Source: Octopus vulgaris
Lineage: Eukaryota
Reading direction: 5' to 3'
DNA: 64,000 bases
Assembly (NCBI GenBank): GCA_951406725.2
Contig: OX597814.1
Span: forward strand, 192,200,001-192,264,000
Part shown: positions 7,965 through 60,710 of the stretch, piece after piece
Numbering within the stretch: the stretch's first letter is position 1
Layout: every line of letters starts with the position of its first letter
Notes under the pieces: model-generated
What the model was told of the DNA's origin: nothing
Database searches by the model: none
Seen by the model: the letters and a program-made list of their open reading frames with translations, nothing else
Program-made: the position numbers and the translations under genes

Positions 7965-8765
7965 CTCCCAGTTTCCATAGATTTTCTGCTTCCCGTTTGA
8001 ATATTCGCCAGCCTGGAACTCCCCGGCATCGTTCTGCAGCTATGTCTCATTTTAGACCTGTAGCTTCAACAAACACTCCGAACACTTACAATTTGACTAA
8101 ACCTTCTTCAAATATTGTTGCAACTAACTCCACTAATGTTTTAACTGTTGCTGCTAAATTTTCTAACTTCGACCAACAGCAAGTATATCCAAAAGAGACT
8201 AAGAAAGAATGTATCATCTACGAAAAACCTCAACTGTCCTCCCAAAAGTATAAAAGTCCAGTAACTAGTATTTATGAATCTGCAGCAGTTTTTGAACAAC
8301 CCAAAAATTCAGCATACAAACTACCTAAACAGTTTTCACAACAATCTACAGTATCACAAACAACTTCTGAGGAAAAACCGGCAGAATTTCTGGAAGTTAC
8401 TCTGAAATCAACAAAGTTTTCAACTTTATTTTATGGTGCTAAAAAAGATCCCAAGAAGGATTTCACACCATTCGGAAATTACAACCGATCACCTTACGGG
8501 AACCCGTCTTTATTTAAGAGTAATAATAATCTAAACCCGTATGCAAGATCCGTTTCCTACCATGGGCTACTTTCAGAAGCTTCCTACTCAAAGTCTTCAC
8601 AAAGCTCAGGCAGTTATTTCCAACCAATTGGTTCATTCTTCCAGCCTTCGTTTATGTCCCATTCTGAGAGAGGATATTCAGAAAATACCTATCAAATGTC
8701 AGCTTCGGCACCATCACTGGTTCAAAATCGTATCAAATGGGCACGGAACATGTCTTCATTTGATG
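7965..8765 (+). CDS. Putative internal coding exon C (267 codons, Ser/Tyr-rich, phase 1-1)
   Basis: Acceptor aattttcag|CT and donor GATG|gtattg. An 801-nt open frame within ORF 7943..8977. Motifs EFLEVTLKST and SLVQNRIKW. Confidence 0.65.
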
Positions 8766-9678
8766 GTATTGTTCCTGTTGTGTTCCTTCCCCTTATGCAC
8801 ATAGTTTCCTTCTGCTATACAGCTCATTTCTACCCACTGTTTTGCATACAATCTAAAGGTTTAGTGGCAAAGCTTCAAACTCTGGCACCGAAAAGAGGGG
8901 GGGGAAAATACCAAAAAAATCACATAAACAGACCCAAGGTTGACTTCATGTTTTCACTCATAAAAAGTAATTTATAATTAATTATATCGTTATTGAGGTT
9001 AATAAGGATGTTGGAGTATCATCATTAAAATTGAGGTTATTTAATTGCATTCTTTTCTAATCTGAGCAAAAATCATGATTAAACCGACTTACCCATGAGT
9101 TGATTAGATAATTATTTGTAACATAGTAAAATACCCTGAGTTGGCAGAATTGTTGGCATGCTGGGCAAAATGCTTAGTGGCACTTCATTAATTCTTTTAT
9201 TCTTGTGACTGCGGCCATGCTGGGGCACTGCCTTTTAGTTGAGTAAATCGACCCCAGGACTTATTCTTTGTAAGTCCAGTACTTATTCTATCAGTCTCTT
9301 TTGCCGAACCGCAATGGACTTCCATACAGTTTCTGTCTACCACTCACAAGGCATTGCTCAGTCTAAGGCTATGGTAGAAGGTACTTGCCCATAGTGCTGC
9401 ACAGTGGAACTGAACTCAAAACCACATAGTTGCAAAGCAAGCTTCTTTACCACATAGTCATGCTTATTGATAAAATGTCTGTAATGCTGCTATGGTAACC
9501 TTCTCTCTCTATATATATACCAGAGATCTTGTGTAATAATTAATGCGTCCTCCCTCCAAAGGTAATAGCTGACTTAAAATGGTTATGACTGAATCATAAC
9601 CATGCTTTGGCCTTCACTTGCGGTCTCTTTACAATTATTGATTGGTGCCTGTTTAATATTACTGGCTGTCTCAATACC

Positions 9679-35782: not shown

Positions 35783-36451
35783 TGAGTATTTATAAAAAGA
35801 AAAGAAAAAAAGGCAACATATGAGTTGGCAACCATTGTATCTGTGCCAGAATCAACTCATTAGCTTTCAGATTATTCTGTCAAATGTAATGCTTATTTAT
35901 GCACATAGCTTTGAATTAATCATCTTGTAGCTTTGAAAATTTGATGATGTGATTGCTTAGCTTTAGAATGGAATTGTAAGGTATGTATGAGGAATTGGAT
36001 CTGGGTAGTTTGAGTGTGTGTGTGTGTGTGTGTGTGTGTATAATAACAATAATAATGAAATTATTGTGTATAGTGCACAGGTGCACTACAACACATCAAA
36101 GGTGGATGTACGGTACATAGAATTATGTACAAAAGTCAGGAAGGTACTATGTACTGTACTGGCACCTTCAATGTATTGTAGTGCACCTGAGCACTATACA
36201 CAATATATATACACATGCACAACAGGTTTCTTTCAGTTTCTATCAAATCTTCTCCCAAGGCTTTTTGTCAACTTGGGGCTATAATAGAAAACTTAACCCC
36301 TCCCCTGAAATTGCTGGCCTTGTGCCAAAATTTGAAATTATTATTAATTTGGGGTCTGGTTCATAAATTAGCATGGAATTTTGGTGGAAGGCTTTAATTT
36401 CAATAACTTCAAAACTAGAAGTTTTTATCATAGAACTAGGGTCAGTATGAT

Positions 36452-36931
36452 ATGCATAAGATCTGGTCATCAAATCTAAGTAGAGACTTCAAACTTAAAA
36501 TCTTCAAAGCCACAGTTGAACCAATTCTACTATATGGCTCAGAAATCTGGACGTTATCAAAGAAGCTTGAAAGGCGGTTGGATGGAACTTACACTCGCCT
36601 CCTTATGAGAGCTCAAAATCTCTCGAGGAAGCGTCATCCAACCAACGTACAAATATATGGGAAACTACCACCTGTATCATCTCTTGTGAAAGGTAGAAGA
36701 GTCCAGTTTGCTGGACATTGTTGTAGAGCTGAAAACGAGATAATTTCTGCTCTTCTCCTCTGGAAGCCATCTACTCGTGATACCAGAGGGCACACACTCT
36801 CCTACCCTGATGTAATCTCCAGGGATACAGGCATCCAGCAACAGGACCTCCGTAATGCTATAATGGACCGTGAAGTCTGGTGTAGCATAGTAAATTCCAT
36901 TGTCTCGACCACGGTCAAACAATGATGATGA
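36452..36931 (+). mobile_element. RTE-like LINE 3' fragment with (GAT)n tail, ending about 120 bp before a WIPF acceptor
   Basis: KLKIFKATVEPILLYGSEIWTL...RRVQFAGHC...DREVW, followed by a stop and tgatgatga. Confidence 0.85.
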
Positions 36932-37049
36932 AAATTGTCAGTATCAGGTGAGCTGGTATCAAAAGGGCTGAAAACCTGTAACATTTTCTTCTTCAGTTTC
37001 AGAAAAATGGTTGTCGTGATTTTGAAATTTTCCTTTTTTTCTGTATCAG

Positions 37050-37772
37050 GTAATTCATCTCCAAAACCGGTGCGCTTACCAAATGGACCTACCAATCCGA
37101 CTGATTTCAGATCCCAACTCAATAAAAATGTATCAAACGGTGGCTCGGTGATCAATGATAACAAGACTTTGCCACAACGGAACGTACCTGCAACTCGTAA
37201 ATTTCAGCCTCCAACTCCTCATCCTGTAAACACTAGCAATGACATCAACAGCAACATCACCAACAATAACCACTCTGTTAATGTTAATACAACCCCCAGC
37301 CCATCGCAACACACTGCTGGTGGCATTGCAATGAACGTTGGCGGAGGACGTCGGATGCCAGGATCACATCCGCCTCCACCTCCCCCACCACCTCCAGGTC
37401 GTCCTCCCTCTCTGCCCAACAACCGAACACCAAATAAAAACCGGCCATCCAGCATGATTGGAAGGCCTTTACCTCCACCTCCAACATTATCTTCTTCCTC
37501 CTCCTCGTCCTCTTCAAGCTCTTCCTTAAACCGAGCCCAGCCTCCACCACCACCACCACCACCCACACGAGGTCCACCACTCCCTCCCGAAAGGGTAGCC
37601 AGTAGCAGTGGGACACTACCAAGGTCAAAACCTCCAGCTCAGAGGCCTCCTCCTCCACCTCCTACAAGACCACCTGCAGGCCCTTCCCGGGTAATGATCC
37701 AAAATCAAGAAGGCCCAAGTCCTCCACAGCGAACATCAAGTAATCTTAGTTCGAGCAGCAACATGAGCATGG
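37050..37772 (+). CDS. WIPF: WIP/verprolin family proline-rich exon
   Basis: Acceptor ttttttctgtatcag| and donor ATGG|gtaagt, 723 nt, phase 1-1. Contains polyproline tracts, RPLPPPP, GPPLPP and PSPPQR. Confidence 0.88.
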
Positions 37773-37794
37773 GTAAGTTTGCTTTTAACCTTAA

Positions 37795-38524
37795 CCCTTT
37801 CGTTATTGTATTTATTTTGAGATGCTCTGAGTTTCTTTCAATTATTTTAAATATAACAAAGAATTTAGTAAAATAACTTAGCTATCATTAAGCTTGTGTT
37901 AGGAGTATTATAATAATAATAATAATAATGAAATTATTGTATACAGTGCTCAGGTGCACCACAAATTGTCAAAAGTGCATATAAAGAATATGCAGTAATG
38001 TGCAAATGTCTAGAAAGTGAACAGTGTATGAGTCAGATACATGCTTGCCTGTGTATGGAGGGGAGAAAATGAGGTGTAGTGTTGGCGAATCTCAGGAAGC
38101 ATGGAAGTTTTGAAGGATGCAGTGCTCCGACAACTAACAACTGATGCCAGGAGTCTGTTCCATGCTTCAGCAACTCTTAGCGTGAAAATATGTTTCCAAA
38201 AGTCATGGGAGCTGTGCTGTTTTCTGACTTTGTAAACATGTCCACGAGTGTTAGACAGATGGAGTTTGAAAAAGTGCTCAGAGTTATTGTTTGTAAGATG
38301 GTTAATAATTTTATGGGTGTCTTCCAAGTCAGCTGCCAGACATCGGAGTTTCAATGTGTCCATGCCCAGGGAAGTAAGGCTTTCAGAATATGGCAAATGC
38401 CTGATGTATGGTATTCTCTTGGTTGCACAAGGTTTGGTGAAAGATTTTTATTCAAAACTTATGGAAATAAGACATTTGTACTACAGAGCCAGAGCCAGTT
38501 TCAGCTGGGTTGGTAATGAAAGGA
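37795..38524. mobile_element. piggyBac-type MITE interrupted by a CR1-like LINE fragment
   Basis: The left half (37795-37903) and right half (38428-38524) match the 13791-14011 MITE. TTAA at both ends. Confidence 0.75.
37906..38427 (-). mobile_element. CR1-clade LINE 3' fragment with (ATT)n tail
   Basis: ORF 38010..38396 has LGMDTLKLR...NTRGHVYKV...FTLRVAEAWNRL, the CR1 ORF2 C-terminus. Confidence 0.85.
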
Positions 38525-38842
38525 TTAATCCTTCTTGCTCTTACCGTGTAATCTTTTGTTGATGAATTTATTAGTTTTTGCTTTTATGTAATTCAACTTC
38601 TTTCACTTTGTTTCAGAGACAGTCTTACTTTAATTATTTGCTTTTGATGCTTTATAATCTGAGGTTTCTTGAAAAATAATGTTGAGAAGAATTATTTATT
38701 TTATAATTTTTGGTTACTGTTTTTAAAGAAAATATCTTGTGAGATAATCAAAACAAAAAACAAAAAAGAAGCTTACAAATCTGCTTGTCATTTTGAAATA
38801 TTTCAGAATACCTTGCAGTTGAATGCCAGTCAGCTCTGTTAA

Positions 38843-39053
38843 CCCTTTTGTTACTGTATTTATTTTGAGATACTCTGTGTTTCTTTCAATTAAGTTTGAA
38901 TATAACAAAGAATTTAGTAAAATAACTTAGTTACCATTAAGCTAGTGTTAGGAACATAAATTGTGACTAAGGTTTGGTGGAAGATTTTAATGAAAAACTT
39001 ATGAAAACAAGACATTTGTACTCAGAGCCAGAGCCGGGTTGCTATCAAAAGGG
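38843..39053. mobile_element. piggyBac-type MITE
   Basis: TTAA-cccttttg ... caaaaggg-TTAA, homologous to 13791-14011. Confidence 0.8.
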
Positions 39054-39402
39054 TTAAGGGTCCCAAATAACAAAAGCATAAATCTCATATCCACTGGTTA
39101 TTTTAGATATGAATTTCTTGAAAAAAAAATAATTTTCTGATTAAAAAATGTTTGTTTGTATGGATTTTCATTTTTCTTACTTTTTTTTTTTTTGCATTAA
39201 ATAAAATTTCATGAGCAATTCATCATCATATTCCATACTCCATGCTGGCATGGGTTGGCTAGTTTGACAGGATGCAACTTGCCTGTGGGTTGCATTAATC
39301 TCCAATGTCGGCTTTGGTGAGGTTTTACTATGGCTTGATACCCTTCCTAAAGCCAACTGCTTTACAGAATTTACTGGGTGCTTTTTTCATGGCATTAATA
39401 TC

Positions 39403-39710
39403 TCTCTTTTACTTGTTTCAGTCGTTTGACTGCGGTCATGCTGGAGCACCACCTTTAGTCGAGCAAATCAAGCCCAGGGCTTATTCTTTGGAAGCTTAAT
39501 ACTTATTCTATCAGTCTCTTTTGCCGAACCGCTAAGTTACAGGGACATAAACACACCCCCATTGGTTGTCGAGCGATGTTGGGGGGACAAACACAGACAC
39601 ACAAACATATATATACATATATATGACGGGCTTCTTTCAGTTTCCGTCTACCAGATCCACTCACAAGACTTTGGTCAGTCCGTGACTATAGTAGAAGACA
39701 CTTGCCCAAG
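39403..39710 (-). mobile_element. SINE family A, 5' truncated
   Basis: Reverse-complement homology to 10789-11170. Confidence 0.8.
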
Positions 39711-40268
39711 ATTGGTGGCAGTTTTCTCTACTGCTGTGCGTATCACATGATGAAGGGTTATCACAAACAGTGAGATATTGTCATCCAACCCATCCCAGTA
39801 TGGGAAAAAATAACTATAAAATAACGATATGGTGAACCACTAGGTACTTTGATGAAATTTCTTAATGATGAGCTCATTATTTAGAATTCTTGTTGAAATG
39901 CAAATGACCAGAGTGATTATGAATACTTGGTTGTGCTATATGCAGCCTTGCAATTTATCATCAGCCCTTAGTTTAATTCCAAGAGCACTTACACATCAAT
40001 AATCTCCCTTTCACCCACTCCCCAGTGACTACTAGAAAACACACAATTTTCTCTCTTTCCCCTCCTTTTTCTTCTTTTTCTTTTTCCATTTACTATTTAC
40101 TATCTCTACTCAGATCACCTATTCTGCATTTCATATCCACTCTGATTATTGGAATATGAAATTCAAATAACTAGATATGAGGTGCCAGCTGTCGCAGCCA
40201 TAAATAACTCTTTCTCTTTGGCATTAAGTAGTTTTCAACTTCTTGCCTATGTATACTATGTATGGATG

Positions 40269-40292
<24 letters not shown>

Positions 40293-40299
<7 letters not shown>

Positions 40300-40575
40300 A
40301 TCACGTGACCGACCAGACCATCAGATGTTGTTACACACATCGCTGGTCACAATGCGTTCGCATTGTTTTAGCCTTTGAATGACGCCACCCCACTGCCTAA
40401 GCGAGCCGGCCAACAGAAGAAAGAGTGGTGAAAGAGTACAGCAGGGATCACCACCCCCTGCCGGAGCCTCGTGGAGATTTTAGGTGTTTTCGCTCAATAA
40501 ACACTCACAACTCCCGGTCTGGGAATCGAAACTGCGATCCTACGACCGCGAGTCTGCTGCCCTAACCACTGGGCC

Positions 40576-40576
<1 letters not shown>
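40293..40576 (-). mobile_element. SINE family E
   Basis: Reverse complement of 31931-32235, with a tcacgtgatcacgtgac tail. Confidence 0.8.
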
Positions 40577-40618
<42 letters not shown>

Positions 40619-41251
40619 CATGCATGTATACACACGCTCATTATATACTCTATCGAAACTCACTTTACAAAATTTTAAATAATATATTTATTCTTTTTTA
40701 TATCTTATAAAAATGAATTTCTGTTTCTTTATTGGAGAATTTTGTTTCCAAATTTCACTATTATCATCATCATCATCATCCTCATTGTCGTCGTCAAACC
40801 AGCAACCTGGCAGAGTCATTAGCATGTTGAGCGAAATGCTTAGTGGTATTTCGTCTGCTGCTATGTTCTGATTTCAAATTCCGCCAAGGTCAATATTTGC
40901 CTTTCATCCTTTTGGGGTCAATAAAATAAATACCAGTCAAGCAATAGGGTTGATGTGATCGATTGTCCCCCTCCCCACAAAAATCCAGTCCTTGTGCCTA
41001 TAGTAGAAAGGATTATTATTATTATTATTTAGGTGGCAAGCTGGCAGAATCATTAGCACGCTGGACGAAATGCTTAGCAGTATTTTGCCCATCACTATGC
41101 TCTGAGTTCAAATTCCGCCAATGTCGACTTTGCCTTTCATCCTTTTGGGGTCAATAAATTAAGTACCAGTGAAACACTGCGGTCAATATAATCAACTAGT
41201 CCACTCCCATCAAATTTCAGGCCTTATGCCTATAGTAGAAAGGATTATTAC

Positions 41252-41286
<35 letters not shown>

Positions 41287-42370
41287 TATAGTGCAGAATA
41301 AAATGTCGAAAATCAATTTTTATCAACCAACATTTTTTCTACTTATACTACATGTTATTTTCCAATCTCAGTAAATTTTAACATAAACCAAGTTATTTCC
41401 CTTGAAATGGGTAAAGCTTTCAATTTTGTTTCGCTATCATTCAAGAGATCACTAACTAGATGGATTTAAAGCTTCATAACTAGTTGCTTATAATTCTGGT
41501 ATACCTTTGTACTCGGTCAGTTTTCTCACTCTCTTCCATCTATAAAAGCCTTGTTTGTATGTCATCATCATCATCGTTTAACATCCGCTTTCCATGCTAT
41601 CCTGGGTTGGACGATTTCACTGAGGACTGGCAAACCAGATGGCTGCACCAGGCTCCACTCTTGATCTGGCAGGGTTTCTACAGCTGGATGCCCTTCCTAA
41701 CGCCAACCACTCTGAGAGCGTAGTGGGTGCTTTTACGTGCCACCGGGGGCCAGTCAGGCGGTACTGGCATTGACCTCACTCGAATCTTTCTACACATCCC
41801 ACTGGCACAGGTGTCAGTAAGGCGATGCTGGTAATGATCACACTTGAATGGTACCTTTTACCTGCCGCCGGCATGGAAGCCAGTTAGCTGCTCTGGCAAT
41901 GATCATGCTCAGATTGGTGCTCCTATCACCCTACTAGCACGGGGCTCAAGTGCCAGTAAGGCGACGCTGGTAACGATCACACTCGAATAGTGCCTTTTAT
42001 GTGCCACTGGCATGGGCAGTAACTTTTCCTGAACATCCTCCAGGAATGGACATCTTTGACAAACAGTACAATAAATGTTTGATGTGATTTCATTCAACAG
42101 CACAAAATCCATTTACTAAGCATGTCAGTGAACGTAAACTCATGTCATAGTCTGTTCTACTTGTGAGAAGAAATACAATTCACCTCATTCTTTACAAATG
42201 CCAAATCTTTCTATATATGACAATCTCCTTTAAAGGCTACAGACTCCACCTAGCCAAGACCACATTACAAAGGTTTAATTTCCTCTTCATAGCCAGGTGA
42301 AACGGTAGCAATGAACAGCTGGCCCTCCAGCATTACAGTATTGATTGCATACATAGGAGAGGACACCACC

Positions 42371-42435
<65 letters not shown>

Positions 42436-45204
42436 AGATAAATTCAATGCCATCTCTTTTATAAACAATGAGAATTATAAACAAATGAATTGCTAGAGAG
42501 AACCTAAAGGGGTCTGTGGCCCATGTGTTCTTGGTGATCCATTATACCCATAATCCAAGCACTTTACTTTCAAGGCCTAAGTCCACCTTGCTCTGAGTAT
42601 AAATACTGCTCGGTGGTTCAATTCGGGGACACCACTGCAGGAACAAAATGACTTGCAAGTGACATTTGTTCCACCCCTCTGTGATCTGAGTTCAGACCTT
42701 GTCAAAATCAACATTGCATTTCTCCCTTTCAGGGTCACCAAAAGAAAAAGTGTTAATCCAGGACTGTGGATTGACTCAACTATTAGAGGATCAGGCAAGA
42801 TGCTTTGCCCTATCGCTTCCAGTCCTTTGTATTCTGACAGCAGCACTTGCTACAACATTGGTGTCAGTCCAAGTTGGTGGCCTTTCCCCTGTATAGACAT
42901 CAGTGGCATAGACAGGAAAGATTTTTGAGAACATGCATGGTCAACATTCTGCACTCACATGAGTTAGAGAGACAGTATTGTCTGTTGTCATTTCCATTGA
43001 CAAATCATCCTTTTGCTCTGCACATTTGAAGACAAATGGAATGGAAACTTTGTTGCTTGATAAAACAGATATGGGTTAGTAGCAGGAAAACTGTAAAACA
43101 ATGCCTTAAGTATATGTATTCATCTAACCCATGCTAACACAGAAAAACAAAGGAATATATATAGTCCTAGCACCTGTGCCATTGGCATATGTAAAAAGAT
43201 TCAAGCGAGGTTGTTGCCAGTACCACCTGACTGGCCCCCGTGCTGGTGGCACGTAAAAGCACCCACTACACTCTTGGAGTGGTTGGCATTAGGAAGGGCA
43301 TCGAGCTGTAGAAACACTGCCAGATCAAGACTGGAGCCTGGTGCAGCCATCTGGTTTGCCAGCCCTCAGTCAAACCGTCCAACCCATGCTAGCATGGAAA
43401 GAGGACGTTAAACAATGGTGATGATGATGATGATGATGATGATGGGTGTGGTTGTGTGGTTGAGATTATTTCCCGACCATATGGTTCCTGGTTCAATGCC
43501 ACTGTGTGACACCTCAGGCAAGTGTCTTTTTCTGTAGCCCCAGGCTGACCAAAGCCTTGTGAGTGATTTTTCTAGATGGAAACTGAAAGAAGCTCATCAT
43601 ATGTGTGTATGTGTATCATTTGGTGTCTCCTTGTCTTGTCATAAAAACATGTTTGGCCATAGGGAAATATTGCCTTACTCAGTAACTGGTGAGGGTTGGT
43701 GACAGGAGGGGCATCTAGCTGTAGAAAATCTGCTCTCATCAAAACGTCCAACCCATGCCAGCATGGAAAACAGACATTAAATGATGATGATGGTTGATAT
43801 ATATATATATATATCCCTCTCTCTTTCGGAGAGGCACAAGCAGCTACATGCACATATACACACACGGCAGTAACTTCCGCCTACCAAATTCTATCACAAA
43901 GCTTCGGTTGGCCCGGGGCTATAGCAGAAGACGCTTGCCCAAAGTGCCATGCGGTGGGACTGAACCTGAAACCATGTAGCTAGAAACCAAGCTCCCTACC
44001 ACACAGCCATGATGATGATGATGATATATATATATATAAAAATTAAATGAATATAAAATTAGCTTAGTTATGACCTTGTTATATTTTCTCTTAGGCATCA
44101 CACGTTTATTAAATATTCCACATATTCTGTATTCAACCACAAGGCCTTTTATTTACTTATCCATTACGTATTTATTCAATATATCTTTTATTTACTACAA
44201 CTTGTTTACTGTAATGAGCTATAATTTTTGTTTACATAGCTGTTGATTGTTTATATATACATCGCATCCAGTTTTATTTACTTAACAGTAAACTGTTCAT
44301 TTACTGTAACCTGCTTATTCTTCATATGTAACTATGCTCCATTTTAATTATTTCAATATGTTTCATTTGCTTAATTATGACCTGTTTTACTTACATACAT
44401 CTGACCTGTTTTCTTCTAGTTCCTCTTGAATATATCCTCTTTAATATTTTGTCATCATCATAATGTTATTGTCCAGTTTTCCTTGCTTGCATAAGTCAGA
44501 CATTGAGGTAGATTTTCTGCTGTCAATACTCACCTGTTTCCAAATCAGGTAATATTTCCCCCATGGCTAGACATGTTTTCACAGAAAACCAGTGATGAAT
44601 GACAATGCTTATATTATGCAATATCAAGACAAAGAAAAATAAGCATACGAGCATACACACACACATACAATGAGCTTCTTTCAGTTTCTGTTGACCAAAT
44701 CCTCCCACAAGTCTTTGGTCAGCCCAGGGCTATACTAGAAGACATTTTTTGAAGGTGTCAGTAGGACTGAACCCAAAGCAGTCTGGCTGGGAAGCCAACT
44801 TCCTAACTACACAGCCATGCCTGCACTAACTCCTCCTCTGAATTTGGAGCAACTAATTTGTGTCACACCAACAGGATATATTTGTCAATAGATACCATCT
44901 TGCTAAATCACTGTCATGGGACATATCAAATGTACAGTCCTCTTTCCATGACTCACTTGATTTTTCTGAAACTAATCTATGCTTAAGGCAGCAAGTTGAT
45001 AGAACCATTAGCATACCAGGCAGAATGCTTAGCAGTATTTTGTCGGTCTCAACATTCTGAGTTCAAATTTCGCCAAAGTTGACTTTGCCTTTCATCATTT
45101 TGTGGTTGATAAAATAAGAGTACCAGTTGAGCACTGGGGTTGATGTAATTGATTTAACTACTCTTGGGTATGAGTATAAAGGTGGGGCAAAAAATTGCAT
45201 CCTT

Positions 45205-45425
45205 CTTATTTCTTTATTGCCCACAAGGGGCTAAACATAGAGGGGATAAACAAGGACAGACAAAGGGATTAAGTCAATTACATCGATCCCCAGTGCGTAA
45301 CTGGTATTTATTTATCGACCCCAAAAGGATGGAAGGCAAAGTCGACCTCAGCGGAATTTGAACTCAGAACGTAACGGCAGACGAAATATTGCTAAGCATT
45401 TCGCCTAGTGTGCTAACAATTCTGC
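45205..45425 (-). mobile_element. SINE family B
   Basis: Reverse complement of 1949-2179. Confidence 0.8.
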
Positions 45426-47201
45426 ATCCTTCTGTCAATCTATGTTGAGCCAGTGTAACAGAGTAGGCTCATCAAACCAATATGATCTCATGTTCAAATT
45501 CACAGCCTAGACATCAGACCATGGTTGGTGGAGAGAGCATGCTGTGGCCCTCATTCTGCAGTGAACTGAATATGGGCAGTCCAATCCTAATCCGAATCTG
45601 TGTTTACATAATAAATGTGGCTACATTATCTCACTGAAGTCAGCACTTGTTTCTGTTGCTTCAACCTTCTTTATTTGCTGTATCTTTACATTGTTAGAGT
45701 TGTCTAAACTTAAAAACCTTTTAGTTGCAATCCCTGTCCCATTCACTTACATAATTATTTTTTTAATCCCACATTACCCTTAATCTTTCACTTGATTTCT
45801 AAAGATTTGGAGCAGTATACTTCATCACAGGCCTATGAAACAGCATCTACACATTTGCTTAAACCACTAGAAACAGCAGCTAAATCTCTCTCAAACAACA
45901 CCTTTATGAAACATGCAAGGACGCATTGGATGATGGAATCCTAAATAGATTATACCTAAAAATAAAATGACGGGTGGCTTGGTCTAGGCTGGAATTATCA
46001 TCATCTCATCATTGTTTAACATCTGCCTTCCATTCTAGTATGGGTGAGATGGTTTCACAAGAGCCAGCAGGCAGAAGCCTGCACCAGACTTCTGTGACTG
46101 TTTTGGCAGGGTTTTTACAGCTGGATGCCCTTCCTAACAGTAACCACTTTGCAGAGTGGAATGTTTAAAATATTAAGTCTGTTCATCCAGTGTTGATCTT
46201 TAAGGGGATTGTTTTGTAGGTAGACATTATTATTATGGCTGTGTAGTTAAGAAGCTCACTTCTCAACCATGTGGTCTCAAGTTCTGTCCCACTGTGTAGC
46301 ACCTTGGGCAAGGGTCTTCAATGTTGCCCCCAGAATTGAACAGACTGAAAATGAAAGAAGACTCTGTGTGTGTGTGTGTACTTTTGTCTTGACATCATGT
46401 GATGGTTTTAAACAAGCATCACTGTCATACAAGCAATATTACCTTGCTTGGAAGCAGGTAAGAGTTGGTGACAGGAAGGGCACCCAACTGTAAAAACCTG
46501 CCTCAACGAATTCCAACTGACCCATGCTAGCATGGAGAAGTGGACATTAAATCATATTTGTATGTCCCACTAATCACTTGTCTTGTTTTATTGGCAATCA
46601 TCATTAGGTCAAGCTTATTTGGATTCCTTTGACTCTGGTCATTCACCCATCACATGAAATAGTTCTTCTGTGACTGAACAATGCATATCTTTGCTGAGTG
46701 ACCAATGCTATTGCTACTATGTTATCTACCCATCAACTAAACAAAGCTAGTCTCAAGAACAAGCTGCTATTTATTCTGATAGTTTGCATCAGCATGAAAT
46801 AAAAACAGCAAAATTGCATGTTTGAGAGACAAAATGATAGTTAGGCTTCATGTATTGCCCTTTGTTAAAGATGGGGAATAAAGAAAACATTTGTATGTTC
46901 ATTTTCAAAAAACATTTCACCAGAGATTTTCGTGGTCTTCTATAAACATGTGATCTGCTGCAATATCCATAGTCCATGGTACTGTAACGTACAATCTGCT
47001 ACTAAGACCTTACTTGATATTGATTATTAAGGCAAATCAACAAAGACTCTATCTGACCTGATCTAATAAAAAGGTAATCAACAAATGCTGAAATTTTAAT
47101 CCCCCTAAAGTTCAAACCAATATCACTAGACTTAGCACAGTTTTCTCTCTCTAATGCAATTGAAAGATTTTGGTAGAGGTATGACATTAACAGAAGACAT
47201 T

Positions 47202-47729
47202 ACTCTCTTTACTCTTTTACTCTTTTACTCGTTTCAGTCATTTGACTGTGACCATGCTGGAGCACCACCTTTAGTTGAGCAAATCGACCCCAGGACTTAT
47301 TCTTTGTTAGCCTAATACTTATTCTGTCGGTCTCTTTTGCTGAACTGCTAAGTTACAGGGATGTAAACACACCAACATTGGTTGTCAAGCGGTGTTGGAG
47401 GGACAAATACAGACACACAAACATATACACACACATGCATATATATATACGACGGGCTTCTTTCAGTTTCCGTCTATCAAATCCACTCACAAGGCTTTGG
47501 TCGGCCCGAGGCTATAGTAGAAGACACTTGTCCAAGGTGCCACGCAGTGGGACTGAACCTGGAACCATGGTTGTCCAGTAGTGGTGGAGGACAAACACAG
47601 ACACAAAGGCACACACACACACACACATAAATCAGGCTATAGTAGAAGACACTTGCCCAAGGTGCCATGCAGTAGAACTGAACCTGGAACCATGTGGTTG
47701 GGAAGCAAACTTTTTACCACACAGCCACC
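47202..47729 (-). mobile_element. SINE family A with a partially duplicated head
   Basis: The segment aggctatagtagaagacactt...ggaaccatg occurs twice (about 47509 and about 47634). Confidence 0.75.
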
Positions 47730-47844
47730 AGTTCTGATCATTTACTAACCAAATCTTAAATGTCACCTACAATAGATTACTGCTAACTTACTGGGGACAC
47801 AGGTCATTCACCTGATTTACTCATTAATATGGTATAACACTGGC

Positions 47845-48061
47845 AGAAACGTTAGCGCACCGGACGAAATGCTGAGCGGTATTTCGTCTCTCTTTACGTT
47901 CTGAGTTCAAATTCCGCCGAGGTCGACTTTGCCTTTCATCCTTTCGGGGTCGATAAATTAAGTACCAGTTACGCACTGGGGTCGATGTAATCGACTTAAT
48001 ACCTATGTCTGTCCTTGTTTGTCCCCTCTGTGTTTAGCCCCATGTGGGTAATAAAGAAATA
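47845..48061 (+). mobile_element. Young SINE family B insertion
   Basis: TSD ggtataacactggc at 47831-47844 and 48062-48075. Confidence 0.85.
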
Positions 48062-48480
48062 GGTATAACACTGGCTCTATTTGGGGTTTTTTGTTTTGTT
48101 GTTGTTGTTTTTTTCTGTCTCTTCTATTACTGCTACGACAACCTACCTCTGTTCTTCTGAACCAACTTGATGCATTCCACTCCGTTTCATCCAGCTCAGC
48201 CTGACACCTGTCTCTTCTCTTCCAATCATTCCTTTTGTGCCTTTGCTCCAAAATTCCACTTAAACACTTTGTCCAATTTTCATTTGCCATAATTATAACC
48301 TTCGAGTACTCTCAATAACTCACATCTGTTGTGGTCATATTAGGTGTGTGTGACAAAATGTAGAGCAAACTGTGTGTTGTCACATTTTTTATGAAAATAC
48401 AGTGTATTTTTAATTACTTCTAGATTTGTTAATCTATGTTTCTAGTTTACCCTTTCTTCCAGTTGCTAAAACAACTCACT

Positions 48481-48528
48481 ATGATAATCCTTATATCACA
48501 GTTGATTTATAGCTCCAGATTATATGTA

Positions 48529-48581
<53 letters not shown>

Positions 48582-49047
48582 ATGTATGTGTATGTATGTA
48601 TGTATGTATGTGTATATACATATATATGATAATCCTTATATCTCAGTTGATTTATAGCTCCAGATTATATGTATGTATGTATGTGTGCATGTGTGTATAT
48701 ATATATGTATGTATGTATGTATGTATATATATATATATATATGTATTATGTATGCATGTGTGTGTATATATATATATATATGTATTATGTATGCATGTGT
48801 GTGTATATATATATATATATGTATTATGTATGCATGTGTATATATATATATGTATGTATGCATGTGTATATATATATATGTATGTATGTATGTGTGTATA
48901 TATATATATGTATGTATGCATGTGTATATATATATATGTATGTATGCATGTGTATATATATATATATATGTATTATGTATGCATGTGTATATATATATAT
49001 GTATGTATGCATGTGTATATGTATGTATGTATGTATGCGTATATATA

Positions 49048-49082
<35 letters not shown>

Positions 49083-49265
49083 GTGTATATATATATATGT
49101 ATGTATGTATGTGTGTATATATATATGTATGTATGTGTGTATATATATATATATATGTATGTATGCATACATGTATATATATATATATATGTATGCATGT
49201 ATATATATATATATACACACACAGACACACACACTCACATACATTTTTATGTATGTACATACATA
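48481..49265. repeat. Compound TA/TATG microsatellite with a duplicated ~50-bp unique flank
   Basis: atgataatccttatatc.cagttgatttatagctccagattatatg occurs at 48481 and 48626. Confidence 0.9.
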
Positions 49266-50083
49266 TAAAACACTTGTGACTTCATTTTCCATTGATTGTA
49301 TTTATAAATCAATGCAAAATAGACGCTTCAAAGTTTGTTGACTTTAAAATTTTATTGCTTTATCTATATTGTCAGTGACTTCACTGTCAAGCTGCATTAA
49401 TTCTTACCAAGTCTCACAGCAGAATATATATACTGTTACCATACATATATTTGTTCAGCTGTTGTCTGTTGTTATTTTCTCTATACTAGCTTTGGCAGAC
49501 TTTGAAGGCTTCTGTAAGCTGGATAATCTCATATCTAGTTAATCTATGTATAATAAGTAGGCTCGCCTTAAATCTTGCTCCTCTAATAACCGTGCGCATG
49601 TTCATCCACAGATTTAGGATTATAGTAGGAGGAGGAATGCCAGACACTCTGTGAGTTAAAATATATCACCGAGTCAAGTGAAACAGTCTGAAAATTCATG
49701 TTGTTCTATGAGGATACAAAGACAAATTTCTGTTGATGGAACTATCATTTTTTGCATCGTTCGACACATTCAAACTGGATTTGTAAAATGTTAACCAACT
49801 TATTTTTATTTCCATTATCAAGTTACATTTTCTTTCATATGTAATCTAACAAACGAAAGCCGTAAAGGTGGGGGGAAAAAAATAGATGTTTTACTGTTAT
49901 ACTTTTCTTTGTTTATTTTTACATTCATTTACTTTGTTGTCTGTGACTTCTGTCAGATCTTCTTCAAATATTGCTATCTTTAATACTGGAAATATTCTTA
50001 TAAACGAGACTAAAAATATATTTCTTGGATGTTATTCATCTGAATGATTTCCCTGCTTTAAGTGTTCCAGTTCACTTGCACCG

Positions 50084-51325
50084 ATGAATAACAATCCTCA
50101 GTTTTCTCATTCATATAGCAACCTAGCTAATGGTTACTATAACTACCCCGCTAACCAATGGTACCAGCCGGTTCCTTATAATATTACTCCCAATGGCAAT
50201 GTCCCATCTCTGGTTACCTCAAGTAACTCCTCTACAAATACCAATTCCAAAAACACCAACAATAATTCTAACAGTTCCATTAATGCCATACAGCCAAGCG
50301 CACCTCCCCTGCCCCCTCCTCCCCCATATACTGTATACCCATCTAATACCCAACATTCAGACACCAGGGCCCATTCGGCACCACCTCCTAGCTACTATCA
50401 ATCTCTCAGCTTCTCACTTCCTCCGGCTACCCAGTTCTCCCCTTCCAACTTCTCTCCTCCCCCCATCAACCAAAGTTTCCCCACCGGCCCCACTAACCAA
50501 TGTTCCCCTACCAGCTTCTCTCCTCCTCCACCCTATAACCAATGTTCCCCTCCTGGCTTCTCTCCTCCCTCTTATAATCAACGTCCTCCTACCAGCTTCT
50601 CTCCTCCTCCTAACCAATATTCCTCACCCAATGTCCAACATTCTTCTTCAAATGGTAATCTCAGTAATTGCTCAACTCCACCTTCTCCCACCCACACTCA
50701 GTATCCCCCATCACCTACCCACTACTACCCTTATCCCTATGGCTATCCTTCTCTTATCAATCATTTTGCCACTTATCGACCTCCACCCCCTCTTGACTAT
50801 ATTCCCAAATATATTGATGATCAATGGAAAGAAAGGATATGCAAATTTTTGGACTTACCTTATGACCCCCGAGCCAATACTAATAATAACCCTATCTTAA
50901 AAGGGGGCTATTACGGGACTGTTTATTCTGTAATGAGTGATGGCAACTGTTTTTTCCGCTGCATCAGTCAGGAGTTGACAGGACAACAGACGTATCATTC
51001 CAAATTACGAGCAAAATTGTGTGAGTTTATCGAAAGCCATAGAGAAAAATTTGAAGCTTATGTCGACTGCAGCTTCTCAAAACATCTTCGGAGAATGAAA
51101 AGAGACAGTACATGGGCAACTCATGCTGAAATATTCGGCATGGCAACTCTTCTTGGTTGTTCCATTTATGTCAACACAAAATATGGTTTCACAACGGAAT
51201 GGCTGCAGCATGACCCAGTGTTTCAGTATCACACGCCACTGCCAGGCTACCATCGACAGCCAGCTCTGGGGAAAATCTATGTGATTCATGTCGGAGAAGT
51301 ACATTTTAATCTCTTCGTTGTGTGA
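50084..51325 (+). CDS. Intronless OTU-domain deubiquitinase-like protein (413 aa) with a Pro/Tyr-rich N-terminus, nested in a WIPF intron
   Basis: Uninterrupted ATG-to-TGA ORF. OTU Cys box SDGNCFFRCIS (Cys codon 50948-50950), middle motif WATHAEIFGMATLL, and His box VHFN near the C-terminus. Confidence 0.85.
   Translation: MNNNPQFSHSYSNLANGYYNYPANQWYQPVPYNITPNGNVPSLVTSSNSSTNTNSKNTNNNSNSSINAIQPSAPPLPPPPPYTVYPSNTQHSDTRAHSAPPPSYYQSLSFSLPPATQFSPSNFSPPPINQSFPTGPTNQCSPTSFSPPPPYNQCSPPGFSPPSYNQRPPTSFSPPPNQYSSPNVQHSSSNGNLSNCSTPPSPTHTQYPPSPTHYYPYPYGYPSLINHFATYRPPPPLDYIPKYIDDQWKERICKFLDLPYDPRANTNNNPILKGGYYGTVYSVMSDGNCFFRCISQELTGQQTYHSKLRAKLCEFIESHREKFEAYVDCSFSKHLRRMKRDSTWATHAEIFGMATLLGCSIYVNTKYGFTTEWLQHDPVFQYHTPLPGYHRQPALGKIYVIHVGEVHFNLFVV
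50430..50625 (+). repeat. Imperfect coding tandem repeat, about four 36-42 nt units (xSPxxFSPPP(Y)NQ)
   Basis: Units FSPSNFSPPPINQ, CSPTSFSPPPPYNQ, CSPPGFSPPSYNQ and RPPTSFSPPPNQ. The DNA core ttctctcctcc recurs. Confidence 0.75.
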
Positions 51326-51780
51326 AGAAGAATTTTCAAGAAACGGATTAAATTTACTCATTCTCCAGTCGTAATCAACCATCTTACCTGTTTTTCGCAC
51401 AAAAGTAAGAGTTGCTTTACACTCTGCTGTTATTCATTTTCCGTAACAAAACCATTTATCCGGACTCTTCCTGGTCTGTTTCATGCTCGTCTCCAAATTA
51501 TAAACTTACTGTGAATATCATTACAAACTCTGTACTCGTTTGGCTGCTGTAGTGTTAATTGGAATTTCTTTATGAAGAACCAGGAATGTTGTAATTAACC
51601 TCTCTGTCTATAGAAATTTTTAAAACAAGAAAAAAAAAAATAGAAAAGGTTCATAGTGAGTTGTAATTTATTCTTTCTTTAAAATTCTAAGCATTATATT
51701 CTTATAACTTAGTTTATTATAAAATTTAAGTTAACTTTGTTGCTTTATAATTGAAGTCTACTGTTATGACTTTTGCTTAT

Positions 51781-52000
51781 ATCATCATCTTCATCATCTT
51801 CATCATCTTCATCATCATCATCTTCTTCATCATCTTCTTCATCATCATCATCATCATCATCATCTTCTTCATCATCATCTTCATCATCATCATCTTCATC
51901 ATCATCATCATCATCATCTTCATTATCATCTTCATCATCATCATCATCATCATCATCTTCATCATCATCATCTTCTTCTTCTTCTTCATTATTATTATTA
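51781..52000. repeat. (ATC)/(TTC) trinucleotide microsatellite
   Basis: Direct reading. Confidence 0.95.
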
Positions 52001-52804
52001 CCAGTTCAATGTTACTCAAATTCTTGTTAATGTCTGACCAGGTAATACTAACTTCAAATTGTAGTGTTGAATTAAAGCATCCATTATGTAGAAATGAATT
52101 GCTCTGACCAATAAATTTAAACTTTTAAAGCAATGAACTGTCAGGTTGTGATACACACAGTGGTAAATTTGATGTAAGACCTTCAGGTATAATTTTTTGT
52201 TGTTTGCATGTATCCAGACATTTATCATTTCTGAATATGTGCAGATGACAGCATCATTTCACATAACGAATGCTATTTTTCAACTCTGCGGGTCAAAGTT
52301 AGTATCGCTTGGTCAAACATTAACAAGAGTTTGAGCAACCTTGAATAGATTTGTTCTTCTAAAAATCATTTCTCTATTATTATATCATTATTATTATTAT
52401 TAAGATTATATCGTTAGCATGCCACACATAATGCTTGATGGCATTTCATTCACCTTTATGCTCTAAATTCAAATTTCACCAAGGTAGACTTTGCTCTTTA
52501 TTTTTTCAGGGTTACATCAACCCCAGTTGATCACTGGGGGTTGATGTAATCAACTTACCCAACTCCTCTGAAAATACTGTACTTGTGCCAAAATTTGAAA
52601 CATTATTATTATTACTACTACTACTTATTTTTAATTTGCATGCTGTTACAATCACTTGCCAAAACACACCCAGCATCCTAGGGCGAGTGAAGGCTAAGAA
52701 ATGTTACAGTATGATTGAAAGCTTGGAGAGGGGAAGTGGTAGGGGCAGTAGTGAAATATATCTTCATGTAATACAATACAGACATTTAAATTGATAGCAT
52801 TTTT

Positions 52805-54250
52805 CTAAGGATGTCGGCAGAACTTATTAGCACAATCTTTTGGATTTCTCTGAGACATGGTTTTAATGAGATGTTGTCTAGATGTTTCTGACATCCTTTT
52901 TTTTATCATATCAAGAGTACCTACAACAACAGGAACAGTTCTTGCCTCTTGTATTTCAATTTCCAGGTCCTTATATTTACTTATTTTGTCAAATTCTTTG
53001 ACAGATATATTTTTATCAGGAGGAACACTTACATTTATTTGTCTACAAGTATTTTCTTCCCTGTTTTTAATCACTGTCTGGTTGATTAGCCTGGATCATT
53101 TTGTTGGTGTTGACTGGAAAATCTCAAAGGATAGTGACATTTTTACCTTCAACGACCGGCTCGGGATGATGTTCATACCAATAAGCAGAGGTGTTGGCTT
53201 TGTAGTGTTTACATATTTTCCAATGTAAATACCGTCCTCCCCTATTGTGGAAATTTTTGTATTTGTTTGGTATCAGCACTGGACATCCCTAGATTAGATG
53301 GTCTATTGTTTCTTCAAATGTGTCACAGAATCTGCATTTGGGGTCAGAACCATTTTGAAGAACATTAGCCTAGGTGTTTTTGGTAAGCATGCTTTAATCT
53401 TGTGCCACCAATATGAAACCTTCAGTCTCTGCTTTCAGTCCTGAGCTTCTCAGGACTGAAAGTTTGGTCTACATCAGCATTTCGGCTTCTATGATGAAGC
53501 TTCTGGCTCCACTGTTCCTCAGTTTGTTTCTGCCAGTTCTTTTTTGCAGTCTGTTTAATCCATTTTGCTTATTTGGTGGCAGTGGTTTCAAGTTCTTGGT
53601 CTAATTTAGAGTTAATGCCGAGTTCCCTTGCGAATTTCCAAGCTTCTTTGACAATAGAATGTGATGTTCTGCTGCTTTCATGTTTGCACACAAGCCACAG
53701 CATCCAGTCCTCTGTATTAGATAAGTATCTGTTCATTGCTATTGTGGAGGTCCTATAGCACAGTTCTACCTGCATCATTCCTCTTCCCCTAATACTTCTA
53801 GGTAGGTACAGAGGATCAACGTCTGCATTTGGATGGTGCATGTTCTTAGATGTTAGTAGTTTTCTTGTCGTCCTGTCCAGGTTTTGGAACTCTGTAAAAT
53901 TCCAGTTAATGATGTTAAGACTGTATTGGACTACTGGAAGTGCCAGGGTGTTAATGGCTTCAATGCAATTCTTGGAGTTGAGTTCAGTTTTTAGTATGAG
54001 TCTTATTCTCCTGTAATATTCCTTTCTTATTTTTTCCTTCATAGTAGCATGTTGTATACTATCTCCATTTATCCCCATGTATTTATAACTTTCTTGTGGG
54101 TCAAGCTCCTTGATGGTAGTGTCGGTATCTAATTTAACAGAAGCTGTTTGCTTGAGCTTGCCACTTACAAAAGTTGCTTTAGCACACTTATCAAGGCCAA
54201 AATCCATTCCAATGTCATTACCGAATTCCTTAACAATTGATAACAGCCCT
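52805..54250 (-). mobile_element. Decayed restriction-like-endonuclease non-LTR retrotransposon (R4/Dong-like), 3' portion
   Basis: RT end FGLDKCAK...YKYMGI...RGRGMMQVE, CCHC knuckle CRFCDTFEETIDHLI*GCP at about 53280-53340, and REL region INVSVP...KISKYKDLEIEI. Contains frameshifts and stops. Confidence 0.8.
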
Positions 54251-54575
54251 GCTATCAATAAAACAAGTACCAGTTGAACATTGGGGTCACTGTAATTGAG
54301 TCATCCCCTCCCCCAAAATTGCTGCCCTTGTGGAAAAATTTGAAACCATTATTATTATTATTAAGGCGGTGAGCTGGCAGAGTCATTAGCACTCTGGACT
54401 ACATGCTTAGCGGTATTTTGCCCCTCGCTTTGTTCTGAGTTCAAATTCTGCCAAGGTTGACTTTACCTTTCATCATTTCAGGGTCAATAAAATAAGTACC
54501 GGTTATGCACTGGGGTTGATGTAATCAACTTCATCCCTTCCCCCAAATTTCAGGCCTTGTGCCTCCAGTAGAAAA

Positions 54576-54611
<36 letters not shown>

Positions 54612-56116
54612 AAAGGTTTAGTGGTATTTCATCTGTCTTCATGTTCTGACATCAAATGCTGCTGAGGTTGACTTAGCTTTTCATTGTTTTAGGGTTTGTA
54701 AAATAAGCACCAGTTGATCACTGGGGTTGATGTTGTCGACTAGCCCCTCTCAGTGAAATTTCAGGCCTTGTGCCTATAGTAGAAAAAAATCATCATCATC
54801 ATTGTCAGATTTAGCTAATCTGTATCATAGATTATGTTTCAGAGAAGAAACGGCCCAAAAGATATCAGTCACATGGAAAAATAGTGTTAATTCATTCAAT
54901 GTAGGAAACATCGAAAAGCTAATTAGGAATAATTATGTAATGAGAAAACAACACTTCCATGCTATCATGATGAATGACATTCTGGATTGACGATAAACAT
55001 TTTCTATTTAGCTGACATTTGTCACCAAAGGTGTGCAGTGATGGCACACTGAATGAAAGGAATTTAAGCCACAGAAATGTAAATACATGGTTCTAGTCAG
55101 AGAAAGTGGGAGAAAGAGAGAGAGAGAGAGAGAGAGAGTCAGACAGACAGACAGAGAGGGGTTGGGTGTAGTAAACTCTGTTCATTGTCTTATTTCTGTT
55201 TTATTCCATTCAATAACTTCTACCATATTTTTCTGTTTGATATAGGAAATATGGAAAAGGTATTTAAGGGAATGAAATTAATGAGAGAAAATGAATTAAT
55301 TCATTAAGCATCTCTCTCTCTCTCTCTCTCTCCCTCCCATCACTCACTCACTCACACACACACACACTTGTAAAGCATTTACATTTTTACTTCTTTATGG
55401 TTTAAATTTATTTGATTGGCTTTCCTATCTCTGCACACTTTCTGATAATGTCAATTAGTTAAATTGAAAGTATCACAAAATATAATAATAATAATAATAA
55501 TAATCAAATGGTGGTGCCCCAGCATGGCCACAGCTCGTGAGCTGAAACTAGATAAAATAAAATAAAATAAAAAATAAAATAATAATCCTTTCTAGTGGAA
55601 TAATAATGATATTGATAATAATATTAACAAATATCAATAATAATGATATTAATAATAATCTTTTCAACTGGAAGCACAATGCCTCAAATTTGTGGGGAGG
55701 GGATGTGTCAATTACATCAACCCCAATGTTTCACTGGTGCTTAATTTTATCGACCCTGAAAGGATGAAAGGCAGAGTCAATCTCGGCAGAATTTGAATTC
55801 AGAACATAGCAACAGGCGAAATACTGCTAAGCGTTTCATCCAGCATGCTTACAACTCTGCCAGCTTGCCACCTTATTCATAATTATAATAATTATAATTA
55901 TTTCAAATTTTTGCCACAAGGGCAGCAATTTTGGGGAAGTTGGGGTGAGTTAATTACATCGACCCCAGTGTTAAACTGATACTTATTTTATTCACCCCTC
56001 GAAAGGATGAAAGGCAAAGTTGACCTTGGCGGAATTTGAACTCGGAATATAACAGCAGACGAAATACCACTAAGCATTTCGCCCGGTGTGCTAACGATTC
56101 TGCCAGCACACCGCCC

Positions 56117-56147
<31 letters not shown>

Positions 56148-57683
56148 AATATTAATAATCCTTTCACAAGGTTAGTTGATTACATTAACCTCGGTGCTCA
56201 ACCGGTACTTATTTTATTACCCTGAAAAGGATTAAAGTTAACCTCAGCAGGATTTGAACTTTCCATAAAAGCCAGAAGAAATGTCGCTAAGCATTTTTCG
56301 TCTGATGTGCTAACGATTCTGACTGTAATAATAATCATGGTTTCAAATTTTGGCTCAAGGCCAGCAAGTGTGGGGGTGGGGGTACTTATTTCACAACCCT
56401 GAAAGGATGAAAGGCAAAGTCAACCTTGGCCAAGTAATAAAACATAATGTTTGTTTTTACATAATTTCTTTTATATTTAGGTGTAATGTTACAAGAAACA
56501 TTAAACTTCATTGTATACTATTGTTTCATTCTTTAGTGGGTGGTAGAAAGATAGATTTTTAGTCTGGACTTAAATTTCAAATGGGATTAACAATGATTTT
56601 TATCCAGCTGAAAAATATGAGATTTTCACATATTCTGTGACATGAAGTATTCCAGATTGCAAGGCAACGTGCTAAAGAGAATTGAGACATTGTTGGGGAA
56701 AAGTATATTTGGAATGGTAATGGCACATTGGCCCTTGCTGATACTGAAAACAAAAGGACCTGGAAGTGCTACTGAGAAGTTGTTGAATGAGGATAATGCA
56801 TGGAGAGAGGTGGGGTTACTCGAAATAAACCCAACAGAGATACCAATCATTGAAGTTACCAGGCATTGATCATCATCATCTTCATTTAATATCCGTTTTC
56901 CATGCTGACATGGTTTCTACGGCTAGTTGCCATTCCTAATACCAACCACTCTAAGAGTGTAGTGGGTGCTTTTTACACGCCAGTGGCACAGGTGCCAGTG
57001 ACACAACACCGGCATTGGCCATGACTACAATTTCATTTGGCTTAACAGATTTTCTCAAGCACAGTATATCGCCAAAGGCCTTGATCATTTGTCACTGCCT
57101 CCATGAGGCCCAATGTTTGAACAGTGTTTTTAATGTGCCAGTTAGGCAACACTGGTATTGGCTTTGACTACAATTTCACTTGACTTGATGGGTCTCCTAA
57201 GGTCTCAGTCACTTGTCATTGTCTCTGTGAGGCCCAACATTCAAAGATCATGCTTCACCACCTCGTCCCATGTCTTCCTGAATCTACCTCTTCCACAGGT
57301 TCCCTCCACCATGCAGCTAAAATCAAATCTTGTTTCTGCATTTTAAAGTAACATAATTTTTCCTTGCTTACTTTCCTCTTTGTTGAGTCTTAAGGGTATT
57401 GGCCATGGAATGGTTCATCTGTTTATTCTGTAGACTTATGTCTTCTTTTGCGTGTATCCTTTCAATTACCTTGTCATTATTGAAATATTTTCACTTAATA
57501 TTTTTTCTCTTTTATGCTGGGTGAAATGCTTAGCAGTACTTCGTCTGCCGTTACATTCTGAGTTCAGTTCTGCCGAGGTTCACAGAGCACAAACAGCCAG
57601 AAGAAATGCCTTCAAGCATTTCACCTTATATGCTTACAGTTCTACTAGCTTGCCTAAATAATAATAATAATAATAATAATAAT

Positions 57684-60170: not shown

Positions 60171-60275
60171 ATATTACAAAACGTGGCCATTTCCATGATG
60201 TATATGAATTTCCACCTCCTGAGCCTTTTAGTGGGTGTGCAAAGACATACCCTAGTCGTAATTCAAGAAATGCTG
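60171..60275 (+). CDS. WIPF: WIP/verprolin family exon encoding the WASP(WH1)-binding domain
   Basis: Acceptor ttctcttctag| and donor GCTG|gtaagt, 105 nt. DITKRGHFHDVYEFPPPEPFSGCAKTYPSR matches the WIP WBD pattern FH-x(4)-[LF]PPPEP-x(5)-KxYPS. Confidence 0.9.
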
Positions 60276-60710
60276 GTAAGTCAACTAATACACATTCTTT
60301 TTGTGTGTGTGCGTGCGTGTGTGTATGTGCGTTTGCCTCTAGCACCAAAAAGTACTGTCTCCAACACCGGTCAGTTGTCCAGTCAGCCATGCCTACTTGT
60401 CTGTGTCCAAACAGCTGGACCCAGTTATTTCATTCTGACCTGTTGATGTAGAGTCATCCATTTCATTTGGAAAAAAAAAAAGACAATGCCTAGATTTTTT
60501 TTCAATTTTTGTCATGGCCGATGCCAGTACCACTTGACTGGCACCTGTACTGGTGGCACATAAAAAGCACCATTCGAGCGTGGTCATTGCCAGTGCCACC
60601 TGACTGGCTCCCATGCAGGTGGCATGTAAAAAGCACCCGCTACACTCTCAGAGTGGTTGACATTAGGAAGGGCATCCAGCTGTAGAAACCTTGCCAGATC
60701 AGATTGGAGC

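Follow-up and report, generated by a model that had tools for sequence, protein, structure and literature searches.

A predicted OTU deubiquitinase nested in a WIP-family intron carries a highly conserved Pro/Tyr segment and a set of late-domain motifs that is not conserved

The stretch of DNA analyzed here (64,000 nucleotides; the window) is animal-like, with repeats of octopus-like appearance, and contains an intronless open reading frame (ORF) of 413 amino acids (aa) at positions 50084 to 51325 of the forward (+) strand, which comprises a Pro/Ser/Asn/Tyr-rich arm (aa 1 to 245) followed by an OTU domain. This OTU ORF lies inside an intron of a WIP-family gene and on the same strand, between an upstream Pro-rich exon (37050 to 37772, +) with a phase-1 donor at 37773 and a downstream exon (60171 to 60276, +) with a phase-1 acceptor. 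The downstream exon encodes the segment through which WIP-family proteins bind WASP and matches PDB entries 9s9x_B (E 8.9e-6) and 2ifs_A (E 1.1e-4), in agreement with the proposal of an earlier note on this DNA that the host is an actin/endocytosis gene, here a WIP-family actin regulator. Searches of the window ORFs and exons against Pfam and PDB revealed no WH2 domain in the host gene. The ORF at 4765 to 5532, which carries a PSAP motif, has a stretch that we take to be WH2-like, with no match in Pfam or PDB. This ORF and two further long Ser/Pro/Asn-rich ORFs (1307 to 1870 and 7874 to 8977, all +) had no significant Pfam match, and all three could belong to the WIP locus as upstream exons. 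ORFs at 53569 to 54300 (-), 36440 to 36925 (+), 38010 to 38447 (-), and 2590 to 3039 (-) resemble decayed non-LTR retrotransposon fragments; a weak DUF6451 match in 36440 to 36925 was the sole Pfam result among these four.

Transcript contigs from four of 24 runs (X1, X3, X8, and X10, whose RNA nature is a program's guess) were mapped across 36500 to 56400, an interval that ends before the downstream exon at 60171 to 60276. One 2,033-nt X1 contig covers an exon at 49653 to 51655 (+) with a single difference, and a GTGAGT donor follows at 51656. The X3 contig ends at the same base, 51655, and the X1 and X3 contigs each carry 30 further letters. In the same two runs the contig of the upstream WIP exon stops 30 letters past its own donor (37772/37773), and these equal remainders past both donors suggest a common downstream exon. 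The contig ends thus indicate that the OTU and WIP donors are probably joined to one downstream exon, likely the one at 60171. In X8 and X10 the WIP exon contig continues for 420 to 423 letters, and the OTU contigs listed for these runs fall short of 51655. The OTU stop codon lies 330 nt before the 51655 donor, and the leader region (49600 to 50083) contains nine upstream ATGs; together these features could limit protein output, and the stop so far ahead of a splice makes the OTU transcript a possible NMD target.

A different product, a WIP-OTU fusion protein, would arise if the OTU ORF were a coding exon to which the upstream WIP exons are spliced. The position of the ORF inside the WIP intron on the same strand would allow this, as would an acceptor-like site at 50063 from which the frame is open to the ATG, and the homologue P0003 has 22 extra N-terminal residues that resemble the in-frame stretch before the window ATG. 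However, the upstream WIP donor is in phase 1, whereas every acceptor-like site within the open frame is in phase 0 or 2, and contigs from three of the four runs (X1, X3, and X10) cross 50063 unspliced. Because of the phase mismatch and the unspliced contigs, we consider a fusion highly unlikely.

The 413-aa ORF matches PF02338 with an E value of 1.1e-14 and 55.5 bits, against a gathering cutoff of 23.3. In the catalytic core (50936 to 51322, +), which contains the D-x-x-C loop, residues D286, C289, H407, and N409 are identical in all four sequences compared (the window protein and homologues P0001 to P0003). The catalytic Cys aligns to that of OTUD1, and we take H407 and N409 to be the catalytic His and Asn from the H-[FY]-[ND] motif. 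The intact motif predicts an active OTU deubiquitinase. AlphaFold2 modeling of aa 196 to 413 with an 84-row alignment gave a mean pLDDT of 85, with aa 246 to 413 mostly above 90, and with a 4-row alignment only the pLDDT was 36. The model predicts an OTU fold over aa 246 to 413 with an unfolded arm, and its top Foldseek match was OTUD1 (4bop; E 1.4e-8, probability 1.00). No C-terminal UIM was found in the window OTU, which stops at aa 413, six residues past the catalytic His, and the 413-aa protein lacks Gly2 and any transmembrane-like window, with no 19-mer exceeding 1.25 in hydrophobicity.

Homologue searches returned three real relatives among 7,931 candidates (P0001 to P0003) and one distant OTU. 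P0001 is a full-length homologue with 87% identity to the window protein, and P0002 and P0003 show 73 to 74% identity across the C-terminal half; the three homologues amount effectively to two lineages, with P0002 and P0003 being presumed orthologues. Searches aimed at longer and at shorter homologues found none, a metagenome scan found relatives in none of 121 stretches, and the ESM Atlas held generic OTU clusters only, with no match to the arm.

The earlier note described six motifs of the ESCRT late-domain classes in the arm, and we found all of them: PSAP (aa 71 to 74; 50294 to 50305), PPPY within PLPPPPPY right after it (aa 79 to 82; 50318 to 50329), PPSY at aa 101 (from 50384), PPPY at aa 148 (from 50525), PPSY at aa 161 (from 50564), and YPSL (aa 221 to 224; 50744 to 50755), all on the + strand. 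The description of two PPxY motifs as parts of an internal tandem repeat was likewise correct, as TRF reported a 39- to 42-nt repeat at 50494 to 50610 that holds the last two. A wider family of degenerate 39-nt (13-aa) repeats, with seven copies across 50384 to 50643 (+) that match the reference at 63 to 100%, also takes in the second PPxY. Three of the seven units carry PPxY (50384, 50525, and 50564) and four lack the Tyr; of the four PPxY motifs, two to three are copies of one 13-aa repeat. This repeat, the source of the PPxY motifs that the note called amplified, occurs only in the window protein and P0001 and is not evident in P0002 or P0003.

Four shuffling schemes, with 10,000 permutations each, served as the background for motif counts over aa 1 to 250; the motif set had been picked after the sequence was seen, and the values should be read accordingly. 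The probability of at least one PSAP was 0.08 to 0.10 and that of at least one YPxL was 0.14 to 0.20, while at least four PPxY motifs arose with a probability of 0.017 to 0.018 under global shuffles and 0.07 to 0.134 under dipeptide shuffles. All three classes occurred at least once with a probability of 0.007 to 0.018 (0.006 to 0.030 over aa 70 to 226), and the exact observed set with 0.0001 to 0.002. With the repeat cut out, at least two PPxY motifs had a probability of 0.12 to 0.36, and the joint value was 0.0007 to 0.014. In this shuffled-composition check the co-occurrence of three classes stood above the shuffles, but the single classes were not clearly above chance when dipeptides were kept. 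Charged residues are scarce in aa 1 to 240 of the arm, with a single Lys and two acidic residues, and each of the distant arms (P0002 and P0003) also has one Lys, which suggests that the composition of the arm is retained while its sequence is not.

Conservation above background had been set beforehand as the refutation test for these motifs. PSAP was present in none of the three homologues, the aligned place reading PTAA in P0001, PPTL in P0002, and PPSL in P0003. PPxY counts in P0001 to P0003 were 4, 0, and 1, which is not above background. P0001 keeps all four, one with an altered x residue, and the survival of all four has a probability of 0.37 given the rates at which Pro (35/38) and Tyr (11/12) are conserved in the background. 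The distant pair lacks the PPPY beside PSAP, and the shuffle means are 0.8 to 1.4 for P0002 and 1.7 to 2.4 for P0003, so both counts are below expectation. YPxL was kept in all three homologues (as YPAL in P0002 and P0003), and each of the four sequences has Gly at position -1. The three classes occurred together in none of the homologues. These observations argue against the claim of a three-class late-domain architecture, and on the sequences compared the OTU protein is not a conserved three-class late-domain adaptor. The more general picture, of an OTU gene that lies within a WIP gene and has late-domain motifs in an arm predicted to be disordered, was supported.

The most conserved segment of the protein is aa 216 to 243 (50729 to 50812, +), which includes PYPYGYP, YPSL, and PPPPL and is predicted not to be folded. 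Over aa 217 to 243, all 27 residues are identical in P0001 and 24 of 27 are identical in each of P0002 and P0003; identity to the distant pair is thus higher here than in the OTU core (98/129) or in other arm segments (5/30 to 15/40). AlphaFold2 pLDDT values were 48 to 61 for aa 196 to 245, 48 to 58 for aa 216 to 243, and mostly below 50 for YPSL, and these low values may stem from there being only four informative alignment rows. A PYP..YP arrangement resembling the type-1 ALG-2 motif is present in all four sequences, as PYP-x2-YP in the window protein and P0001 and with several spacings in P0002 and P0003, and it overlaps the ALIX-like YPxL. According to passages of a review, PMC5037681, PYP may stand in for PPYP in weaker type-1 motifs. 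Like the window protein, the type-1 ligands treated there (ALIX, annexin A7/A11, and TSG101) have a Pro/Tyr-rich region where YP comes after PYP; the PYP-YP spacing is 2 in the window and 4, the canonical value, in ALIX, and ALG-2 binding by the window protein is putative. The residue preceding YPSL is Gly, not Leu. The same passages give LYPXnL in Gag and syntenin and YPXnL in PAR1 and P2Y1, and since the motif of these two receptors has no leading Leu, the Gly is compatible with ALIX. Judging by its motifs, aa 216 to 243 has its best candidate partners in ALG-2 (PYP..YP) and the ALIX/Bro1 V domain (YPxL). That either one is the real partner is less likely than not; a partner of either kind would still put the deubiquitinase beside ESCRT. 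Two PPSPTH motifs (50678 to 50722, +), duplicated in the window and P0001 and with one copy invariant in all four sequences although the arm around it has diverged, are a candidate proline-directed phosphorylation site.

An HMMER scan with aa 216 to 413 against 1.84 billion representatives returned 3,546 proteins at an E value of 0.001 or less, of which only P0001 and P0002 fell below 1e-30. The next match, P0005, is a fragment of a PIF1 helicase that contains three OTU domains, and transposon-linked proteins are prominent among the best nonorthologous matches. Sixty matches, selected for length or an N-terminal extension from 148 others listed, were scanned for domains; 13 contain a domain of Helitron, PIF1, VTD, integrase, hAT, or endonuclease type, and UCH was found in 4 others. 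In P0066, P0080, P0132, and P0141, the OTU domain lies inside a UCH (USP) span, giving two deubiquitinase classes per chain. OTU domains of Helitron and Ginger elements are described in passages of PMC11417382 and PMC2836005, and these, together with parts of PMC9741609, identify Helitrons and Ginger1 elements as known OTU carriers. The OTUs of Helitron/Helentron RepHel and Ginger1 proteins share with the window OTU a PF02338 core and a W..IC..L.L helix 35 to 45 residues before the catalytic Cys. In the window this pre-OTU extension occupies approximately aa 241 to 259 (50804 to 50860, +), with a confidently predicted helix at aa 246 to 255. A profile of 11 upstream segments, from seven transposon-linked proteins, scored the window extension at 15.9 bits, a score reached by none of 2,000 shuffles, in a test that is partly circular in that the query held the extension and the segments were hand-picked; the extension is our own working definition and is unpublished. 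Four transposon-linked matches lack it.

Unlike the transposon OTUs, the window OTU is a stand-alone ORF with a long Pro/Tyr arm, its core is strongly conserved, and it has no RepHel, integrase, or endonuclease. A RepHel or integrase domain was found neither in the OTU ORF nor in nine other window ORFs or exons scanned, a search for longer homologues found no fused form among 91 candidates, which is weak evidence, and no terminal repeats were present among the 25 longest of 423 inverted pairs listed for 48000 to 53500. In a careful tree of the OTU core (54 rows chosen from 160 domains, 135 columns, with no named OTUD rows), a long branch holds the four sequences and separates them from the extension-bearing clade (100/99) as well as from the cellular-like clade (100/99). 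FastTree and quick trees did not place them among the extension-bearing OTUs either, and an AU test did not reject their union with that clade (p 0.171). Domestication of the OTU gene from a transposon, which the tree neither shows nor rejects, is likely on domain content and the extension. A viral origin was dropped, as the viral fold matches were generic OTUs with 10 to 24% identity and were weaker than OTUD1.

The gene might instead have diverged from a cellular deubiquitinase gene of the OTUD1 kind after copying. In PDB, both the sequence and the fold match OTUD1 best, the four sequences are not nested among the extension-bearing OTUs in the tree, and human OTUD1, in passages of PMC9952104, is likewise encoded by a single exon, with a long disordered Pro-rich N terminus and a C-terminal OTU domain. 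However, the UIM of OTUD1 described in the same passages is missing from the window OTU, structural identity is 19%, and the PDB matches begin after the pre-OTU extension, leaving it unmatched. The arms also differ in composition, that of the window being rich in Pro/Ser/Asn/Tyr and that of human OTUD1 in Ala/Pro/Gly. With the same core query, OTUD1 reaches 44.5 bits, a score exceeded by 137 of the 152 proteins retrieved (the three close homologues included), and the separation of the four sequences from the cellular-like clade, in a tree without named OTUD rows, also argues against this origin, which we regard as unlikely relative to domestication of a transposon OTU. For the arm, ARRDC1 and LITAF are late-domain proteins, and a membrane-targeting unit is typical of Gag, ARRDC1, and LITAF. 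The arm resembles these proteins in having PSAP beside PPxY, plus YPxL, in a Pro-rich segment, and it could be read as a platform that binds TSG101, NEDD4-family ligases, and ALIX together and brings the deubiquitinase to ESCRT sites. The presence of every motif, the low joint shuffle probability even with the repeat collapsed, and the placing of PSAP five residues ahead of PPPY are consistent with such a platform, and MLV Gag has PSAP, LYPAL, and PPPY in the passages seen of PMC8402826. However, PSAP is lost in all three homologues, even in the 87% identical P0001, the PPxY counts of the distant pair lie under the shuffle means, and PSAP also appears in another Ser/Pro-rich ORF of the window (one of four scanned). 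The window protein differs from Gag, ARRDC1, and LITAF in that its motif set is not conserved, it contains a deubiquitinase domain, and it lacks a membrane anchor, a lack compatible with indirect membrane recruitment. We judge a three-class platform to be very unlikely.

A narrower proposal is that expansion of the repeat, in the lineage that includes the window protein and P0001, made functional PPxY sites for the recruitment of a NEDD4-family ligase, forming a deubiquitinase-E3 pair like CYLD-ITCH. The retention of all four PPxY motifs in P0001 and their excess over global shuffles would fit, as would the binding of ITCH by CYLD via PPxY (in parts of PMC9362849) and the stabilization of ITCH by the OTU enzyme YOD1 (in parts of PMC5882221). 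The survival of all four is nevertheless expected, dipeptide shuffles reach the count at 0.07 to 0.13, four of seven repeat units have no Tyr, and the distant pair has at most one PPxY, so that ligase recruitment appears doubtful. It is also conceivable, if improbable, that the OTU was domesticated in WIP as an alternative first exon that borrows the WIP 3' exons, with ALG-2/ALIX docking and with PPxY and PSAP added later in one lineage; the product would then be a Ca2+-recruited, ESCRT-side deubiquitinase coexpressed with the WASP-WIP endocytic machinery.

The explanation that we favor, and consider reasonably probable, is an intronless, transposon-derived OTU deubiquitinase in the WIP intron that is aimed by aa 216 to 243, with the PSAP and PPxY repeats as by-products. 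A transposon OTU domain would have been domesticated as an intronless gene inside the WIP-family intron, and its transcript would be spliced onto the next WIP exon, the WIP 3' exons serving as its 3' untranslated region. The conserved Pro/Tyr segment of the otherwise disordered arm would direct the deubiquitinase to substrates, perhaps folding upon binding a Pro/Tyr-reading partner, and PSAP and the PPxY repeats would be lineage-specific by-products of arm composition.

The OTU gene is real and lineage-restricted, and the deubiquitinase that it is predicted to encode is probably domesticated. The three-class claim would have been striking, but two of its three motif classes fail the conservation test. 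This leaves a lineage-restricted OTU under strong constraint, with a probable transposon origin, nested in WIP and apparently sharing its exons. Our search of the open-access literature returned no description of this OTU gene, as a cephalopod or a domesticated-transposon gene, with one paper on VTD deubiquitinases (PMC9741609) as the sole relevant match. In passages of that paper, domesticated VTD deubiquitinases provide a precedent for transposon-borne deubiquitinase domains turned host genes, although they have a VTD fold and the window protein has an OTU fold. The same passages state that transposon OTU domains had not been assayed for activity as of 2022, and a copy that stands alone and has been retained by its host would lend itself to such an assay. 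The 27-aa segment, being more conserved than the catalytic domain, offers one precise target for partner finding. At the other end of the arm, the first 26 residues (50084 to 50160) show the same pattern in all four sequences, made up of Asn-Pro-Gln, Gly-Tyr-Tyr, and Gln-Trp, and 14 to 15 of the first 40 residues are identical in the distant pair. This N-terminal 26-residue element is a second candidate binding element.
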